From positions 262,359-294,358 of the forward strand of contig JBHLKY010000002.1 in the NCBI GenBank assembly GCA_048886185.1: a DNA stretch of 32,000 nt, in the 5' to 3' direction. The DNA comes from Candidatus Hermodarchaeota archaeon (GTDB lineage Archaea > Asgardarchaeota > Heimdallarchaeia > Hodarchaeales > Hodarchaeaceae). Positions 22,885-31,499 of this stretch are shown here, one piece after another (position 1 is the first letter of the stretch; each line of letters begins with the position of its first letter). A program made the position numbers and the translations under genes. The notes beneath the pieces were generated by a model. It made no database searches, was not told the origin of the DNA, and was given only the letters and a program-made list of their open reading frames with translations.

Positions 22885-23565
22885 TTGAATTCTGAGAAAT
22901 TACCCGCAAGAATTGTAGGAGTCTTATTCATAACTGCGACGGTTGCAGCCATAGTAAGTGGTGTTTTTATATTACCAATTATAGGAGCTTCAGATTATCT
23001 GGCTGAAGTTTCTGCGAATGAAACCCAAGTAGTGCTTGGAGCGATATTTTATTTTATTATGGCAGCTGCAGGGGCGGGTATTGTAATTCCGATGTATCCA
23101 ATCTTAAAAAAGTATAATGAGGGCATGGCTTTTGGGGCCGTTGGTTTCAGGATTATTGAAGGCGCTATCTTTATGGTTGGTGTAATGTGTTTATTAGCAC
23201 TAGTGCCATTAAGTCAAGAATATGTGGAATCAGGAGCTTCAACTGATTCCTATTTTCAAATTATAGGTGAATTATTATTAACAGGATATACTGTCGATCA
23301 GGCTGTTGTACCAGGGGTATTTGCTTTTAGCATTGGTGCTCTGATGTATTATTCCATATTTTATCAAACAAAACTTGTTCCTCGATGGTTATCAGTTTGG
23401 GGTCTTCTTGGGATCATATTGGGGATTTTGAATGGCTTGTTCGATATGTTCGGTGGTATTGATGAGATGATCTCGATGTTGCTAGATCTACCAATTTTTG
23501 TGAATGAAATGGTTCTAGCGATATGGTTGATAGTTAAAGGATTCAACACATCTACAATTGAATAG
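22885..23565 (+). CDS. DUF4386-family membrane protein
   Basis: ARIVGVLFI, MYPILKKYNE..A.G.V.FR..E, KLVPRWLSVWG, EMVLAIWLIVKGF. Confidence 0.85.
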   Translation: MNSEKLPARIVGVLFITATVAAIVSGVFILPIIGASDYLAEVSANETQVVLGAIFYFIMAAAGAGIVIPMYPILKKYNEGMAFGAVGFRIIEGAIFMVGVMCLLALVPLSQEYVESGASTDSYFQIIGELLLTGYTVDQAVVPGVFAFSIGALMYYSIFYQTKLVPRWLSVWGLLGIILGILNGLFDMFGGIDEMISMLLDLPIFVNEMVLAIWLIVKGFNTSTIE

Positions 23566-23579
23566 AAAAAAATTCTCAA

Positions 23580-24019
23580 ATGAAAGCAATTGTACAGACA
23601 AAATACGAACCACCAGAGGTTCTTCAGCTCAAAGAGGTAGAAAATCCACTCCCAAAGATAATGAAGTACTGGTAAAGATTTTTGCAGCATCCGTAAATGC
23701 AATCGACCCGCTTATCGTGAGAAGAAAACCTTTCTTTCTCCGTCTAACAGCAGGGGGGATTCTAAAACCAAAACACAACCATACAATACTAGGAGATGAC
23801 ATATCGGGGCAGGTTGAAATAGTTGGTAGAGACGTGGAGCAGTTTCAGCCTGGTGATGAGGTATTCGGAAATAGCAATTGGGGTGACTTTGCTGAGTATA
23901 GGTGTGTTCCAGAAGAACGATTAGTACTAAAACCAGCTAATATATCGTTTGAGGAAGCAGCAGCCGTACCTATAGCAACAATTACCGCTCTACAGGGTCT
24001 CCATGATAAAAAACAGATT
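23580..24019 (+). pseudogene. MDR oxidoreductase copy 3: frameshifted near 23646 and truncated before the Rossmann domain
   Basis: ATG 23580 gives MKAIVQTKYEPPEVLQLKEVENP; a 1-nt loss (CCACTCCC vs CCAACTCCT in copy 1) shifts the frame to TPKDNEVLV...ITALQGLHDKKQI, where homology stops. Confidence 0.85.
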
Positions 24020-26305
24020 CTAACCAGACAATTGATCACTTTCCTTTTCTCTCAACCTTCTAATGGAAAGCTCTAACGCTCCTTTTAAGATTCGAAGAAA
24101 TGAAATCCCCTTAGGTGTAATTATATAATTTCTAAAGCGACCATCCTTAAGGACTTGAGGAGAAACAAATCGTTCCAAATATTCTAATTCCATTAAACGG
24201 TTTATTTCATAAGAAACAGTCGTGGGAGGAATATCTAAGGTCTTAGCTAATCTCATTGGATTCGTTTCTTCAGGATGCTGATAAGCAATCTCGATTAATG
24301 TTAAGACTGTTCTTCCTTTTAATCCTGATATTAATTCATCTCTAAAGTCAGAGGGAAAATACTCAACAAGAGTTGTCGGTTCTACAGGTTCTAGCAAAGG
24401 AATATCTTGGTGTTCTGAAATGATCGCTGATTGGATGTTTTCTAGACCAATAATTACTTTACCATAAACAGATTTTAAAAAATCAATCTGATCTGAAGGA
24501 AAAAAATCAATGATCGTTTTTGGAACTCTTGTTTTGGATGTATACAAGAAGTAACTAACCCCAACCATCAAAATTAGACTAGCAACTACAATGAACAATT
24601 GAATAACAAATTGATTGCCTCCTGAAGACATATTGGCAATTGTGAATGTTTTCGAGATCTCTGCAACAATAAGTCCCTCATCGCACTTTGCTTCTATCTT
24701 GAGTAAATAGGTGGAACCATCGGCCACTTTAGTTGTATCCCATTTGAAGTGTGTAGCTGTTAAGTTCGAGGCGAGGACTATCCATTCCTCTCCCTGATCT
24801 GGTGAATAATAGACAACGTAAGTGATGCCATGCTGCAAGGAATCTAATGATGCAGTCCATGTAAGGATGACTATACCAGTGAGAGGGGTTTGGGGGAGCA
24901 AAAGGTTTGGATTGTACATCAAATGACCATGATCCAGTTCTAAAGTGACAAGGGGATGTGAATCTTTGTTTTCTATTACTCCTTTCACAGGGTAGGGTTC
25001 ATCTACGATCCCGTCTTTATTGTTATCAGGTGACACCCAGTCATCCCAGTAATTAAAGGCAAATGTATTGTTTGATCCTCCATCCTTGGCTTGATGTTCA
25101 GGAGCATAATTGTCTGTAAAATTATTAAATGTAAAAATGTTGTAATGTGTGTTCCCTTCAATTCTTATTGCTTCCATGTTATTATCACAAAATACATTCT
25201 CAGTAAATGTATTGAAATCTGAATCAAAGAGAACAGCACCTACTATTCCGTTTTTGAGTATCCTATTTGTTGAAAATGTGTTATTATGGGAAGAAAGCTC
25301 TAAATCAATTCCTAGATTGAAATTCGCTTGTGCTGTATTATTCCAGATTATGTTTCCTGTTGAATAGTAGAGACTAATCCCTCCCATGTTATTCAACACA
25401 TAATTGGACGAAATATTGTTCTGCGAGGAATTATACAAAGAGATCCCTATTATTGTGTCCTGAACTTCATTTTGGGAGATTACATTCCCTGATGCGTGTA
25501 TGAGGTCTATCCCATTCACATCACTCCCATAAATCGTGTTCTTAGAAATGATGTTGGAATTCGATTGCTCAAGCTGTATTCCCGCACCAGTATTATTGTA
25601 GATGGTATTTCCGACTAGAGTGTTATTGGAGGTCTCGATATTCAGCCAGATCGCCATCTCCTGATTTCTGTAAATACTATTATTGACAATACAAATATTG
25701 TTTCCACCAACGTTTATGCCCATCTGGTTACCAAAAATAAAGTTGTTGATAATTAAATTGTGAGAGGATGAGTGTTCAAAAACGATTCCTCCATCTATAG
25801 CATCATTATTGCATATGATGTTATTCTCAATTGTGCCATGTTGAACATTAGAGAAATGAATGCCTTCCGTCGCGGCGTTTGAACCATTAAGCAGATTATT
25901 TCGAATGATGAAGTAGAGAATAGTGTCACTGATAAATATGAGTGGTCCTTCTGTTGCTGTAATGGAGTACTCTTCAATTACAATCGGATTAGCCATTGTC
26001 CCTTCTCCTACCCAATTCTTTATAGTCGCTTGAGTAATAAAATCCTCGTCACCATAGATAAAAATAGGTTCATAAGGAGTATAGAGATGAATATTACGGG
26101 CTATTTGAGGAGTTGTCAGAGAGAATGCTTGCGTTCTTGAAAAAGGGTCGTTATTGGGATTTTGTAAGTTTTGATTTTCAGTCCAAGCAATGCCTCCTAG
26201 CAATAGAATATTAAGAAGAAGCACGTATATGGAATGTTTCAATTTAAAACGACACAATGTATCCCATATAACTGCTTTTGACATTATAATCACGAGTTTT
26301 GTCAA
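24020..26305 (-). CDS. Membrane-anchored NosD/right-handed beta-helix protein with FN3-like domain, TM helix and cytoplasmic winged-HTH
   Basis: N-terminal hydrophobic signal, many GI.L..S.NN.I..N repeats, NYWDDW..PD.N.DGI.DEPY, LTWTAS...YYS.D.G..W, TM segment, LAKTLDIPPTTVSYEINRL...YIITPKG. Confidence 0.9.
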   Translation of the reverse strand: MTKLVIIMSKAVIWDTLCRFKLKHSIYVLLLNILLLGGIAWTENQNLQNPNNDPFSRTQAFSLTTPQIARNIHLYTPYEPIFIYGDEDFITQATIKNWVGEGTMANPIVIEEYSITATEGPLIFISDTILYFIIRNNLLNGSNAATEGIHFSNVQHGTIENNIICNNDAIDGGIVFEHSSSHNLIINNFIFGNQMGINVGGNNICIVNNSIYRNQEMAIWLNIETSNNTLVGNTIYNNTGAGIQLEQSNSNIISKNTIYGSDVNGIDLIHASGNVISQNEVQDTIIGISLYNSSQNNISSNYVLNNMGGISLYYSTGNIIWNNTAQANFNLGIDLELSSHNNTFSTNRILKNGIVGAVLFDSDFNTFTENVFCDNNMEAIRIEGNTHYNIFTFNNFTDNYAPEHQAKDGGSNNTFAFNYWDDWVSPDNNKDGIVDEPYPVKGVIENKDSHPLVTLELDHGHLMYNPNLLLPQTPLTGIVILTWTASLDSLQHGITYVVYYSPDQGEEWIVLASNLTATHFKWDTTKVADGSTYLLKIEAKCDEGLIVAEISKTFTIANMSSGGNQFVIQLFIVVASLILMVGVSYFLYTSKTRVPKTIIDFFPSDQIDFLKSVYGKVIIGLENIQSAIISEHQDIPLLEPVEPTTLVEYFPSDFRDELISGLKGRTVLTLIEIAYQHPEETNPMRLAKTLDIPPTTVSYEINRLMELEYLERFVSPQVLKDGRFRNYIITPKGISFLRILKGALELSIRRLREKESDQLSG

Positions 26306-27123: not shown

Positions 27124-28143
27124 ATGTCAAAGAGAGACAGAGAAATTCAAAATATCGCAGAAAGAATACTAGAAGATAGTCCTGATCCTACCATTCAAGT
27201 TAGATTATTACGCGATATATTAGGAAAGAATAGAGACGATGCTGAACTAATTGAAGCAGTATCAAGATTAGATGACAATAAATGGGTACAAATGCTTAGA
27301 AATGATCAATGGGAAGATGGGAGCTGGGGAAGGTTTCACACTGAAGACACTAGCCTTAAGCAAAAAGTCCCTACCACTGAAGTGGGCGTTACTAGAGCCA
27401 TTAACCTTGGTCTTGATGACACTCATCCTATAATCCAAAAAGTAACTAAATATATTATAGGAATACTAACCAATTCAATCAAGCCACGAGACGTTGAACC
27501 AAAAGGTATAGGTCGAAATGTTTGGGATAATCTTATCAAAAAGATTGTTGCAGCTTCATTGGCAGAAATAGATCCTATTCATCCAATCCTATATGATTAT
27601 TTTGATCTATGGGTAAGAATCCTACAAAGATCCTTTCCCTATAACTCATACGACAAACAAACGCAGATTTCTGCGTTTCTAGAACTGCTTGAGATAAACT
27701 TTGACAAACTTTCACCCCGATTTAGAAAAAGAATAAAGGAAGGGAAAGAATTCACAATAAATGACGTTTACACTGTAAATCTAATCGGTTCTCAAGTACA
27801 TAAGTTGAAACCTGAGTTAGAAAAAGCATTTTTCAGGAGAGTATGGAATCACGGAATTGGTTACCTAAATGTGGATCTGAGAACTTCTCCGAGTAGTTTA
27901 ATAGGAACTACTACTTTCACAAGGTGGTTGAGATCCCTTGAAGTTTTAAAACCGTATCCTAGCTGGAAATCTCATGTTGAAGAAATTATTGAGTGGTTAT
28001 GGGCCAATCAAACTAAGAATGGGCTGTGGGATTTTGGAAACGTACCATTAACCAATAGATCAATAAGACTGTCCTCTAGTTGGAGGAAACCAAATGTTCG
28101 CATCCACGATTGGACAACTCGTATTCTATTGATATTAAAATGA
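27124..28143 (+). CDS. Hypothetical alpha/alpha-toroid protein with prenyltransferase/squalene-cyclase-like QW repeats
   Basis: LRNDQWEDGSW and WLWANQTKNGLW; no DxDD motif. Confidence 0.7.
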   Translation: MSKRDREIQNIAERILEDSPDPTIQVRLLRDILGKNRDDAELIEAVSRLDDNKWVQMLRNDQWEDGSWGRFHTEDTSLKQKVPTTEVGVTRAINLGLDDTHPIIQKVTKYIIGILTNSIKPRDVEPKGIGRNVWDNLIKKIVAASLAEIDPIHPILYDYFDLWVRILQRSFPYNSYDKQTQISAFLELLEINFDKLSPRFRKRIKEGKEFTINDVYTVNLIGSQVHKLKPELEKAFFRRVWNHGIGYLNVDLRTSPSSLIGTTTFTRWLRSLEVLKPYPSWKSHVEEIIEWLWANQTKNGLWDFGNVPLTNRSIRLSSSWRKPNVRIHDWTTRILLILK

Positions 28144-28311: not shown

Positions 28312-31041
28312 TCAGATTCGTGTACTCTGGATAAATGGTCTCTCCTTTCCCTGTTCAATCTCCCATTTTTTCCGTTCTGAACGCAATCTAAAAAGATCTA
28401 CTTCCTTATAGATCAATTCCTCCTTTTTAGGAGGAATTTTTCGTTCAATTTGTTCTCTTTCAGGCGTAAAAATAAAAGATTCACCTACTTCTGCGATATT
28501 CGCGAAGAAACAGTAAGCATAGATAGATCTACGAGCATCAAAATGTGCTGCGTTAAAATCAGCAGTAACAGGGGTGAAGGCTGGATTAAATATCATATCC
28601 ACGGGAGGATCAGAATTTTTAAGTTCAACACGTAGATCCATGTCCAAAAAATCCCTGCAGATTGTTATCGCAATATTACCATATTCAGTTCTACAGACAA
28701 TTGTATTTCTAGTAAAAGCGTCAGTGTTAATTCCTTCCTTGAGTCTTCTCCCATGATAATGGATTATGGCTGGTATATGTTTTTCTTGTTGCCATAGGAC
28801 ACCCTCTGGACCTAAAACCATACAAATGTTTCTTTTAGTATGTTGGTCATGATATGAACCGGGAATGATATACATGTCATAATTATTAGCAAGTTTAGTC
28901 ACATCCTCAAGCAATTCCTGGTAATTGAAATCAATAGATAGCTCTGGAAAGAGTAAGACTTTAATGTCTTTAGAATGAGCATCTATTACTAATTCCTTTA
29001 CCTTTCTCCTTATAACTTCCAGTTTTTCTTTTCTAAGATTAAAAAGCCCTTCTGATTTTTCTTCATAAAACTCATTCACAATATCATCAGTCTCAGCCAC
29101 GCCTATCTGGGCAATCGCAACTTTAAAGTTATTTTTTTCGGTTTTAGAGGTATCTTTAAGCAGATCTAAATGGATTAGATGATATTTTCTTATTGGTACT
29201 TCTTCCCAAGCCGTTCTCTTATATTTCTCTCTCCTAGCATATTTTTCCACCTCCTCCTCGGTGATTTCGAAAGGATTTCCTGCAACTCGAGACATCATTT
29301 CCTCTAATCTCGTTAATTCGAATCTTTTTGCTAAAGGTACATTTTGTTTAATGAGAAATTGCCATTCTTCTACCTGTGCCTCTAATGCTGTTTTTTCATT
29401 AAATATTTTTACAGCTAAATTCCTTAAACCTTTTTCTTCTGCAATTAATAAAGCAAAATCTAATAATTCTTGCGCTTTTACAAAATCTAATTCTAAAAGT
29501 GCAAGTTTAGATTGAAGAACATAAGTCTCAGTAAGTATAGAATGAGAAGATTGATTTTTGGCTATGTCAAGGAGTTGATTTGTCAACTCTTTGACTTTAA
29601 TAAGAATTTCTTCTTCTCCAGTCATTTTGAGCTCATAGAGTAATAGATCACTCAAAAATATCATTGCAGTAATAGTTAAATTATGATCAACAACGTCTTC
29701 TTCTACTACTTTCTCAAGAATTTCTATAGCTTTCATCTTTAACCTAAAACGGGGACTATTCTTGAGTATGAGAGCTTTTCCAATGAGATATTTTTGATTA
29801 ACAATCCGATTATTAACTCGTTCTTTGATCCCTTCAAGCTTTTGTAGATAATTTTGGGAAAGAGATGGTTCATTATTGTCCAAACAAAGTAATATTAGAT
29901 TGTAAAGAACGTCGGAAGTTGAAAGATTGTTTTGTAACTCCTCAAATATTTTTAAGCTTCGTAGAAAATATTTTTGAGCCCATTTAGAATTCTTTTTTAT
30001 TTTATAGATCTCACCAATGTTGACAAATGACAAAGCGATGTCTGCCTTCATTCCGAGCTCTTCATAGAGGGCAAGACTTTCCTGATGATATTCCAATGCC
30101 AGATTAAGGGCACCTTTCAACTGATATACATCACCCAAGTTGTTAAGTACAAGAGCAATGTGTTTTTTATCACCTAATTTCTCAAAAATTAACTGAGACT
30201 GTTGATAGTATTCTAACGCCTGATTTAAGCTTCCTTGCATACGATAATTCACACCTAAATTGAGAAGAGAAAGTGCGATTTCATTTTGGTTTCCAATTCG
30301 TTCTTTAAGGGCTAAACTTTTCTGATAGAATTCTAAGGCTTTTTTATGGTCTCCTTTCAGCTGATAAACAGTACCTAAATTATTATAATTTGAAGCGAGA
30401 ATTTGATCATCCATCACCTCCTCTATAGTACTTATACTCTTTTGATGACACTCAATTGCCTTATCTAAATATCCTTTTGAGCGATATAAAAGACCTAGAT
30501 TATTTAATACTTTAGCGACTCCTTGTGTGGCATTTAGCGCCTGAAAGAAGGTTAAGCTCCTTTGATGGTCTTTTAGTGATTGATCAAAATTACCTTGATA
30601 CCATTCAAAAACTCCCTTTGATAATAAGAAATCCCCTCTTCTTCTTTCAACCTCATCTATTTCATCATAATCATGTTCTATTTCCTGAAATATCTCCTCC
30701 ACCCTTTGTGATACTTGTAATCCTTCGTTAAATCTGCTTGAACGCCAACAAATCTCTAATTTATTCAATAAAATGTCAACTATAACTAATTTATTTTTTA
30801 TTCCTTTAAAATTCTTTAACATTCTTTCAATCTGCTCATCAGCTTTCTCTATCTCTCCAAGTTTGATCATAAGTTGATTTTCAATTAATAAGCAATTTAA
30901 TTGATCATTTAAAGAAAGCTCTTTGTCAATGAAAAGTTTTCTGACTAATTCTATAGCTTTTTTATAATCTCCTCTACTCATAAGATTTTTTACATGCTCA
31001 ATTTCATCTTTGAAGTTGTCAATCAAGTAAATTCTTTCCAA
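28312..31041 (-). CDS. TPR protein fused to a C-terminal carbon-nitrogen hydrolase (nitrilase-like) domain
   Basis: About 7 TPRs; the domain from about aa 638 has VAIAQ, FPEL (E700), QEKH (K754), ICRDF (C795), NPAFT and FANIA. Confidence 0.9.
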   Translation of the reverse strand: MERIYLIDNFKDEIEHVKNLMSRGDYKKAIELVRKLFIDKELSLNDQLNCLLIENQLMIKLGEIEKADEQIERMLKNFKGIKNKLVIVDILLNKLEICWRSSRFNEGLQVSQRVEEIFQEIEHDYDEIDEVERRRGDFLLSKGVFEWYQGNFDQSLKDHQRSLTFFQALNATQGVAKVLNNLGLLYRSKGYLDKAIECHQKSISTIEEVMDDQILASNYNNLGTVYQLKGDHKKALEFYQKSLALKERIGNQNEIALSLLNLGVNYRMQGSLNQALEYYQQSQLIFEKLGDKKHIALVLNNLGDVYQLKGALNLALEYHQESLALYEELGMKADIALSFVNIGEIYKIKKNSKWAQKYFLRSLKIFEELQNNLSTSDVLYNLILLCLDNNEPSLSQNYLQKLEGIKERVNNRIVNQKYLIGKALILKNSPRFRLKMKAIEILEKVVEEDVVDHNLTITAMIFLSDLLLYELKMTGEEEILIKVKELTNQLLDIAKNQSSHSILTETYVLQSKLALLELDFVKAQELLDFALLIAEEKGLRNLAVKIFNEKTALEAQVEEWQFLIKQNVPLAKRFELTRLEEMMSRVAGNPFEITEEEVEKYARREKYKRTAWEEVPIRKYHLIHLDLLKDTSKTEKNNFKVAIAQIGVAETDDIVNEFYEEKSEGLFNLRKEKLEVIRRKVKELVIDAHSKDIKVLLFPELSIDFNYQELLEDVTKLANNYDMYIIPGSYHDQHTKRNICMVLGPEGVLWQQEKHIPAIIHYHGRRLKEGINTDAFTRNTIVCRTEYGNIAITICRDFLDMDLRVELKNSDPPVDMIFNPAFTPVTADFNAAHFDARRSIYAYCFFANIAEVGESFIFTPEREQIERKIPPKKEELIYKEVDLFRLRSERKKWEIEQGKERPFIQSTRI

Positions 31042-31499
31042 GTTATTTTAATGAAAATTCTGAAGAATTCAAAACCTCAAGAAGCCTAGGCGTTATAATT
31101 AATATCTATTATTATATCTCTTTTTATATAAGATGGTAGGGATATCTAAAATTATACAGCATTAATAATCTTACATTATTTTAGAAGAAAAATGAGTAAC
31201 CAACTCCCTATTTACAACAAGTTGAAGCGATTACTTAGTGTAGAGGTGTTCAACTTCAGATTAACGGTATTTTCTATAGTTCATTTCAAATAAGAAATTA
31301 TTAAAGTCCATATTTTCCATTCTGTTTCCGATACTACTTGCATTTACCCCCCAAAACGCAATTCAGGGAGTAAATTCTGTGAAAAAATAAAATAAAGGGA
31401 AAAAATTAGTCTGGAATAAATTACTATATATATTAATTATAAAGGAGTTGTTACCAATATAGAGAAAAAAAGGGAAGGAAAACTTGAAGAAAGGGAATT

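Follow-up and report, generated by a model that had tools for sequence, protein, structure and literature searches.

A nitrilase module of conflict-type sequence affinity on a TPR scaffold in Asgard archaea: a candidate one-polypeptide sensor-effector

Introduction

Nitrilases have only recently been recognized as effectors in prokaryotic immunity and are poorly understood in this role. In the closest described systems, DRT1 (UG1) and UG5, a reverse transcriptase (RT) is followed by alpha-helical repeats and a C-terminal nitrilase (PDB 9yfd; PMC13275509, PMC13436386), and class 3 UG/Abi RTs bear a nitrilase in some cases and a phosphohydrolase in others (PMC13275509). The DRT1 nitrilase, the substrate of which is unknown, is an abortive-infection effector that is active only as assembled tetramers; its core holds the tetramer or filament together, and conserved residues at the C-terminus are swapped onto the next protomer, where they form a lid and either complete the active site or occlude it (PMC13275509). 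Here we describe a gene for a 909-amino-acid (aa) protein, in which a tetratricopeptide repeat (TPR) solenoid is fused to a C-terminal nitrilase module. The gene lies in a 32,000-nucleotide stretch of DNA (hereafter the window) from a Candidatus Hermodarchaeota archaeon assigned to the Hodarchaeales (GenBank assembly GCA_048886185.1, contig JBHLKY010000002.1, positions 262,359–294,358 of the forward strand). In many placements Hodarchaeales are the archaea most closely related to eukaryotes.

The 909-aa protein shares with DRT1 and UG5 a C-terminal nitrilase of the RT-associated type behind a helical-repeat region and with DRT1 a conserved extreme C-terminus, and the Asgard scaffolds repeat the alternation between nitrilase and phosphohydrolase. 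It differs from both systems by its TPR solenoid front end and the lack of an RT domain (no RT family in Pfam or PADLOC, the PADLOC matches to RT-nitrilase models being confined to their nitrilase part), which excludes control of its assembly by a protein-primed DNA adduct. The Asgard host, an identity of about 25% and the position in a separate tight clade further distinguish the family from DRT1. The best-scoring profile (47 bits) was that of the CARF-nitrilase CARF_m7 (PADLOC PDLC01989), a candidate type III CRISPR ancillary effector, which follows the same sensor-plus-nitrilase logic, but the match covers only the nitrilase part (model positions 213–390 of 457) and the 909-aa protein has no CARF domain. 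Like the STAND/NLR-like receptors (Avs, nSTAND; with TPR, LRR or HEAT sensors), it combines a putative repeat-solenoid sensor with an interchangeable effector cassette; fusions to nSTAND3, LRR or HEAT occur among the closest nitrilases of the outgroup, some family members contain AAA_16, and sister scaffolds carry TIR. Unlike these receptors, it has no nucleoside triphosphatase (NTPase) domain or Walker A motif, and any switching would be without nucleotide hydrolysis. Nit2/omega-amidase and the PH0642-type amidases (PDB 2w1v, 1j31, 6ypa) have the same alpha-beta-beta-alpha sandwich and Glu-Lys-Cys triad and gave the top Foldseek matches, but the identity is 12–17%, the housekeeping profile scores are low, and these enzymes are stand-alone proteins of about 270 aa, whereas the module studied here is a cassette on large, variable proteins.

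The 909-aa protein is therefore not a member of DRT1/UG5 (no RT), the CARF-nitrilases (no CARF) or the STAND receptors (no NTPase), and by analogy it may work like the effector halves of these systems. With moderate confidence we regard it as a ligand-switched sensor-effector on one polypeptide, probably related to conflict, because of its architecture, the exchange of the effector cassette (TIR, phosphoesterase), the gradient of conservation along the protein and the patchy, multi-copy distribution of the module.

Results

Architecture, fold and catalytic residues

An earlier note on this DNA, made from its letters only, had claimed a TPR and helical scaffold fused to a nitrilase with the residues E700, K754 and C795, and the open reading frame (ORF), Pfam, motifs, conservation and structure models agree on this layout (Table 1). 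Pfam detected TPR families at about aa 130–400 (TPR_12, E 2e-42, plus TPR_1, TPR_10 and the MalT-like TPR region) and CN_hydrolase (PF00795) at aa 672–888 with 26.0 bits, the gathering cut-off being 23.2; in a six-frame search of the genome the module scored 29.5 bits with CN_hydrolase. The full-length AlphaFold2 model (mean predicted local distance difference test, pLDDT, 81.6) consists of a continuous alpha-solenoid (aa 10–577), a low-confidence linker (580–617; pLDDT below 50 at aa 580–593 and 604–617) and a compact nitrilase domain. Neither a Walker A motif ([AG]xxxxGK[ST], motif scan) nor an NTPase family (Pfam) nor a hydrophobic segment typical of a membrane span was found in the 909-aa protein. 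The public protein collection contains an identical protein (P0002), and since the orthologues are 904 aa long, translation may in truth begin a few codons downstream. The closest homologues come from Candidatus Hodarchaeum and Hodarchaeales, and the G+C content of the host is about 34%. When sequencing runs were searched for expression, no RNA run was listed, only sediment and estuary DNA runs.

The nitrilase part modelled alone (aa 600–909, with a 50-sequence alignment) reached a pLDDT of 93.7, and Foldseek matched this model to nitrilase-superfamily structures, namely Nit2, NitFhit, the PH0642 amidase, beta-ureidopropionase and formamidase (E 1e-15 to 1e-11, template modelling score 0.6–0.7). 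Nit2 was at the top with E 3.5e-15, and the best 50 of the 213 PDB matches at E ≤ 0.001 all belonged to the nitrilase superfamily. With its alpha-beta-beta-alpha fold, the Glu-Lys-Cys triad and a Pfam score above the cut-off, the 909-aa protein is a member of this superfamily.

Conservation was assessed in module alignments of 38 family representatives and 12 outgroup sequences. K754 is invariant in all of them, and E700 and C795 nearly so. E769 is invariant or nearly so in the family, and its conservation is still at least 90% when the outgroup is added; judged from this conservation, it is probably the second Glu of the catalytic tetrad. Mean column identity of the module in the family alignment was 66%, and many residues flanking the catalytic motifs in sequence are also fixed; a further motif, IPGSYH, is at aa 726. 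In one family representative (P0153) Gly replaces the catalytic Cys (INGRDF) while the rest of the module is conserved, and this protein may be an inactive variant. At the extreme C-terminus, residues I904, Q905, S906, T907 and R908 are invariant, the family proteins nearly always end there, and this FIQSTR tail has low pLDDT in the monomer models. Prediction of a homodimer from two copies of the nitrilase module gave a score of 0.33 (mark 0.42), which was counted as evidence neither way.

Table 1. Features of the TPR-nitrilase gene and its scaffold paralogue in the window
Feature	Position	Strand	Basis and remarks
Whole ORF	28312-31041	(-)	909 aa, TTG start, stop codon 28312-28314; soluble TPR-nitrilase fusion
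N-terminal helical cap, aa 1-130	30652-31041	(-)	Helices in full-length model; fastest-evolving part
Canonical TPR array, aa 131-395, regular helix pairs	29857-30651	(-)	Pfam, PADLOC TPR model and structure model
Helical scaffold module, aa 396-577, prolongs the solenoid	29311-29856	(-)	Common to effector-less, kinase-bearing and KaiC-like-bearing paralogues
Linker, aa 578-619, low-confidence or disordered	29185-29310	(-)	Model pLDDT and family consensus; ends in conserved EVPxRKY lead-in
Conserved nitrilase-superfamily end module, aa 620-909	28315-29184	(-)	Pfam CN_hydrolase, PADLOC conflict-nitrilase models, nitrilase-fold model, family alignment
E700 codon, catalytic Glu in FPELS	28942-28944	(-)	Motif and alignments
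K754 codon, catalytic Lys in QEKHIPA	28780-28782	(-)	Motif and alignments; invariant including outgroup
E769 codon, probable second Glu of nitrilase catalytic tetrad	28735-28737	(-)	Inferred from conservation
C795 codon, catalytic nucleophile in ICRDF	28657-28659	(-)	Motif and alignments
Extreme C-terminal tail FIQSTRI, aa 903-909	28315-28335	(-)	Family alignments
Effector-less scaffold paralogue, 605 aa	17679-19496	(-)	BLASTP to aa 6-575: 34% identity over 570 aa, E 1e-73; Pfam TPR

Affinity of the nitrilase module

The affinity of the module was judged by profile scores, a control from the same genome and an outgroup-rooted family tree. The PADLOC profiles CARF_nitrilase (47 bits), RTasNitrilase (41) and RT_UG5-nitrilase (36) all scored above Pfam (26). 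Among the NCBIfam housekeeping equivalogs, AguB reached 19.8 bits (cut-off 410) and Lnt 14.4 (cut-off 133), and no other match appeared even at E up to 10. The three stand-alone nitrilases of the same genome showed the opposite pattern, with 61–176 bits in Pfam and at most 15 with the PADLOC nitrilase models. The nearest proteins outside the family pointed in the same direction as the module: 49 of these 69 match the CARF- and RT-associated nitrilase models, 45 the UG5 and 23 the Drt1a model, and only 18 pass Pfam CN_hydrolase at E ≤ 1e-5; their partner domains include nSTAND3, LRR, HEAT, PUA and TPR. When solved structures were searched with a profile that included outgroup sequences, DRT1 (9yfd) was best with 68 bits and Nit2 followed with 59; with a family-only profile DRT1 was the sole end-to-end match, Nit2 having a similar score over a partial match. 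The PADLOC scores, the same-genome control, the outgroup matches and the DRT1 match thus support, at the level of sequence affinity, the assignment of the module to conflict-type nitrilases, in a separate clade about 25% identical to DRT1, and they bear out the by-eye impression of a conflict-style nitrilase given in the earlier note.

A cassette on unrelated front ends

An exhaustive HMMER search of 1.84 billion representatives returned 47 family representatives at E < 1e-30, the full-length ones at least 41% identical to the query, followed by a gap down to E of about 1e-12 and 25–33% identity. In a larger protein collection 836 cluster representatives (90% identity) match the module region, and for most of the best 120 of these matches module identity is 62–70% whatever the front end. 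The module is nearly always C-terminal, and its front ends comprise TPR scaffolds of about 850–920 aa, a helical solenoid (about 1277 aa in total), forms of about 1390 aa, NosD-type beta-helix arrays (1616–1800 aa), fusions with alpha/beta-hydrolases and a combination of AAA_16, nitrilase and alpha/beta-hydrolase. The nitrilase module is consequently a swappable cassette on unrelated front ends. Databases name the family proteins only "tetratricopeptide repeat protein" or "carbon-nitrogen hydrolase family protein", and no published description of Asgard TPR-nitrilase or solenoid-nitrilase proteins was found in the literature on nitrilases with Asgard, TPR, CARF and STAND or conflict systems.

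The reverse exchange, of effectors on one scaffold, was also observed. In other proteins the helical module of the scaffold (aa 395–600) is joined to a Ser/Thr kinase at the C-terminus or to a KaiC-like ATPase, or has no such partner, and the genome holds 16 copies of it, of which only two carry a nitrilase. These copies include two adjacent 756-aa frames on contig C34. The effector-less paralogue in the window (Table 1), about 9 kb from the TPR-nitrilase gene, stops where the linker and nitrilase of the 909-aa protein begin. On the sister scaffold of the approximately 1277-aa proteins, TIR_2 or a metallophosphoesterase replaces the nitrilase. BLASTP detected no significant similarity between the N-terminus of the 1276-aa form and the scaffold of the 909-aa protein, and a protein-atlas look-up of that N-terminus yielded only TPR-like leads, all with scores below 0.9.

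Conservation declines from the effector towards the N-terminus. Mean pairwise identity among 45 TPR-type homologues was 0.67 in the nitrilase, 0.52 in the helical module, 0.47 in the TPR array and 0.34 in the N-cap, and against the closest orthologues it was 0.84–0.88 in the nitrilase and 0.52–0.63 in the N-cap. One orthologue, on a Heimdallarchaeota B3_Heim contig (L009:2833-5545), is in two overlapping pieces in different frames (aa 1–551 and 545–908), the result of a frameshift or an assembly error.

Distribution and phylogeny

At E ≤ 1e-30 the module was present in 90 of the 301 Asgard genomes and in 4 of the 30 families (13 of 20, 29 of 76, 32 of 68 and 15 of 19 genomes), with one to eight copies per genome, and its presence varies even within the genus to which the window belongs. 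The genes for the approximately 1277-aa solenoid-nitrilases form tandem arrays of up to four. Such genes, about 135 nt apart in arrays of two to four, were seen at G192:C1:157776-170593 and G121:C33:148257-157041 and in loci L052, L054, L067 and L078.

In the tree the family is separated from the outgroup as a monophyletic group (support 97), and the 909-aa protein falls into a 34-member clade, mostly of the TPR type. Bathyarchaeia and WOR-3 bacteria also have copies of the module, and among the listed homologues one bears the label Zixibacteria. The WOR-3 copies, L064 and the closed-chromosome copy L063, are distinct, and both nest in the Asgard TPR-type clade. The nitrilase module of L062, from a metagenome-assembled genome labelled Nanopelagicaceae, is nearly identical to that of L049 (Promethearchaeota; end branches 0 and 0.004), a binning artefact being a likelier source of the actinobacterial label than gene transfer.

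Gene neighbourhoods

In the window the TPR-nitrilase gene is accompanied by genes for a surface receptor with a MarR tail, a 339-aa protein, oxidoreductases and a surface protein with a CTERM signal, all of them non-defence; one neighbouring gene ends in a Heimdall-CTERM sorting signal. The 339-aa ORF (27124-28143, + strand), convergent with the TPR-nitrilase gene, matched no Pfam family and only weakly a QseB-type winged-helix end (E 1e-3), and it had no match in the loci of the closest orthologues. Of an alcohol dehydrogenase, a 172-aa ORF (23558-24076, + strand) comprises no more than the GroES-like N-terminal portion (ADH_N). This ORF, which overlaps the adjoining NosD/MarR gene at the end of the latter, may be a truncated MDR remnant. 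Upstream of the TTG codon, a GTTyGGAAT-like stretch (31066-31078, - strand, about 25–37 nt away) also occurs upstream of the orthologues L004 and L008. Alignment of the upstream regions of four orthologues revealed no convincing operator, this stretch being too short.

Gene order in the window is not shared by the loci of the closest orthologues (79% identity), and other family loci lie among ribosomal, proteasome and metabolic genes. For a wider survey, 841 ORFs from 80 loci were clustered all-against-all and the 150 nearest neighbours were scanned with PADLOC. At most a dozen of these 150 gave PADLOC matches at E ≤ 1e-10, all generic (mad2, SspA/DndA-like, E1-E2). No RT was present among the 150 nearest neighbours of family members or in the protein itself, which upholds the RT independence proposed earlier, and the neighbours checked included no CRISPR-Cas genes.

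Two local arrangements recur within lineages. The Thorarchaeota-type loci (L014, L018, L023, L033, L039, L050, L055 and L076) contain, in this order, genes for a beta-lactamase-like protein, the TPR-nitrilase, a convergent 151-aa GNAT, a 265-aa GNAT and DUF362, and the convergent GNAT is 4–77 nt from the TPR-nitrilase in 5 of the 7 such loci that have it. In five Lokiarchaeia loci (L034, L054, L069, L078 and L084), two to five tandem S33-type alpha/beta-hydrolase genes lie 4–9 kb downstream of the solenoid-nitrilase genes. A link between these hydrolases and the alpha/beta-hydrolases fused to the module in bacterial forms was considered and rejected, the similarity (20–28%) being just generic.

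Discussion

The ligand-switched sensor-effector that we favour would operate as follows. The N-terminal alpha-solenoid, made up of the fast-evolving cap, the TPR array and the helical module, would bind a protein or peptide ligand, and the flexible linker would tether it to the conflict-type nitrilase module. Ligand on the solenoid may then relieve inhibition of the nitrilase or drive its oligomerization. Nitrilases presumably need oligomers for activity, and by analogy with DRT1 the FIQSTR tail probably completes or caps the neighbouring active site. The active enzyme would hydrolyse an amide or nitrile group in a cellular molecule that is both abundant and universal, an invariant target being argued by the extreme conservation of the module, and the outcome may be growth arrest or another conflict or stress response.

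A bolder extension of this proposal, which we put forward tentatively, is that Asgard archaea including the Hodarchaeales possess a large, undescribed family of NTPase-less, NLR-like one-protein receptors. Their solenoids would sense a viral or foreign protein and release a plug-in effector (nitrilase, TIR, metallophosphoesterase or kinase), and the nitrilase would destroy an essential, universal, amide-bearing metabolite through chemistry shared with DRT1.

Several observations weigh against a role in conflict. The 909-aa protein has none of the RT, CARF or NTPase switches of the known systems. Known defence genes were not enriched among the 150 nearest neighbours scanned with PADLOC, a test weakened by the bias of this collection towards bacteria, and the family members do not lie in defence islands. 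There is no conserved partner gene, as no neighbour family recurs in more than 9 of the 80 loci, and no relative was found on IMG/VR viral contigs. Of the 19 genomes of one Asgard family, 15 contain the module, and most of these have just one copy. The tandem paralogues are of old origin, with 44% identity between paired copies in the N-terminal part and 68% in the nitrilase, and several Lokiarchaeia genomes have kept the same pairs. The TPR-type subclades follow taxonomy (Hodarchaeales, Hermod/Odin, Thor), and Thorarchaeota, and only they, keep the TPR-nitrilase in stable synteny with the GNAT, DUF362 and beta-lactamase-like genes; clade and synteny together make a resident cellular function fit as well as immunity. 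Finally, the alternative modules of this very scaffold are a kinase or a KaiC-like ATPase, and the 16 paralogues of the genome are mostly enzyme-free, so general scaffolding fits them as well as sensing. The one-component TPR-gated amidase of signalling or defence suggested in the earlier note is consequently sustained in part: the fusion, the intact triad and the conflict affinity speak for it, whereas the lack of defence islands and of a partner gene and a clade that follows taxonomy speak against it.

The same observations underlie the explanation that competes most seriously, which we nevertheless consider on the unlikely side, namely that the protein is a resident enzyme with a regulatory task in the signalling or proteostasis of Asgard archaea. 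Its TPR solenoid would recruit a cellular partner or substrate, and the nitrilase would perform deamidation or acyl transfer on a protein, peptide or metabolite (cf. Nta1, Lnt). TPR arrays are protein-binding modules, the kinase and KaiC-like ATPase borne by the same scaffold are typical signalling enzymes, and the many scaffold paralogues (an effector-less one only 9 kb away), the taxonomic clade, the two GNAT acetyltransferases beside the Thorarchaeota genes, the missing defence-island context, the near-universal single copy in one family and the retained old tandem pairs would all suit such an enzyme. It is harder to reconcile with the nearest relatives of the module, which are defence-associated nitrilases and not Nta1, Lnt or Nit, and with the sister scaffold, on which the module is interchangeable with TIR and metallophosphoesterase, both typical immune effectors. 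Of the 30 Asgard families searched, 26 yielded no copy of the module, and its presence varies within a genus, so it cannot be a core function. Moreover, the module stays about 60–70% identical on unrelated front ends and in different phyla, which speaks against its having co-evolved with a protein substrate peculiar to one lineage.

We consider it improbable that the 909-aa protein is a housekeeping metabolic amidase (omega-amidase or carbamoylase-like) with a TPR extension for stability or localization. The nitrilase fold with its intact triad would suit this role, as would Nit2, which led the Foldseek matches and scored like DRT1 with the family-only profile. The NCBIfam equivalog scores are, however, far under their cut-offs, three typical stand-alone nitrilases already exist in the genome, and the family is almost only a C-terminal cassette on large, variable proteins. 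The neighbour survey adds that the homologues do not sit in a conserved metabolic operon.

Least probable of all is a mainly structural role of the module in assembling TPR scaffolds, with catalysis secondary or lost: nitrilases are obligate oligomers, the core of DRT1 holds its tetramer or filament together (PMC13275509) and P0153 has Gly for the catalytic Cys, but the Glu, Lys, Cys and second Glu are invariant or near-invariant in 37 of the 38 representatives together with many motif-flanking residues, which indicates selection on catalysis.

Conflict-type nitrilase effectors themselves were already known; what is new here is such an effector on a scaffold free of both RT and NTPase. The Asgard family represents an enzyme of the DRT1 kind freed from the reverse transcriptase and placed on simple TPR scaffolds, and since it is also highly conserved and abundant, it could be a more tractable system for the targets and the switching of nitrilases. 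An immune-like role of the family would extend the defence repertoire of Asgard archaea by a receptor-effector design that works without an NTPase; a regulatory role would point to an unrecognized amide-directed modification system in these organisms.

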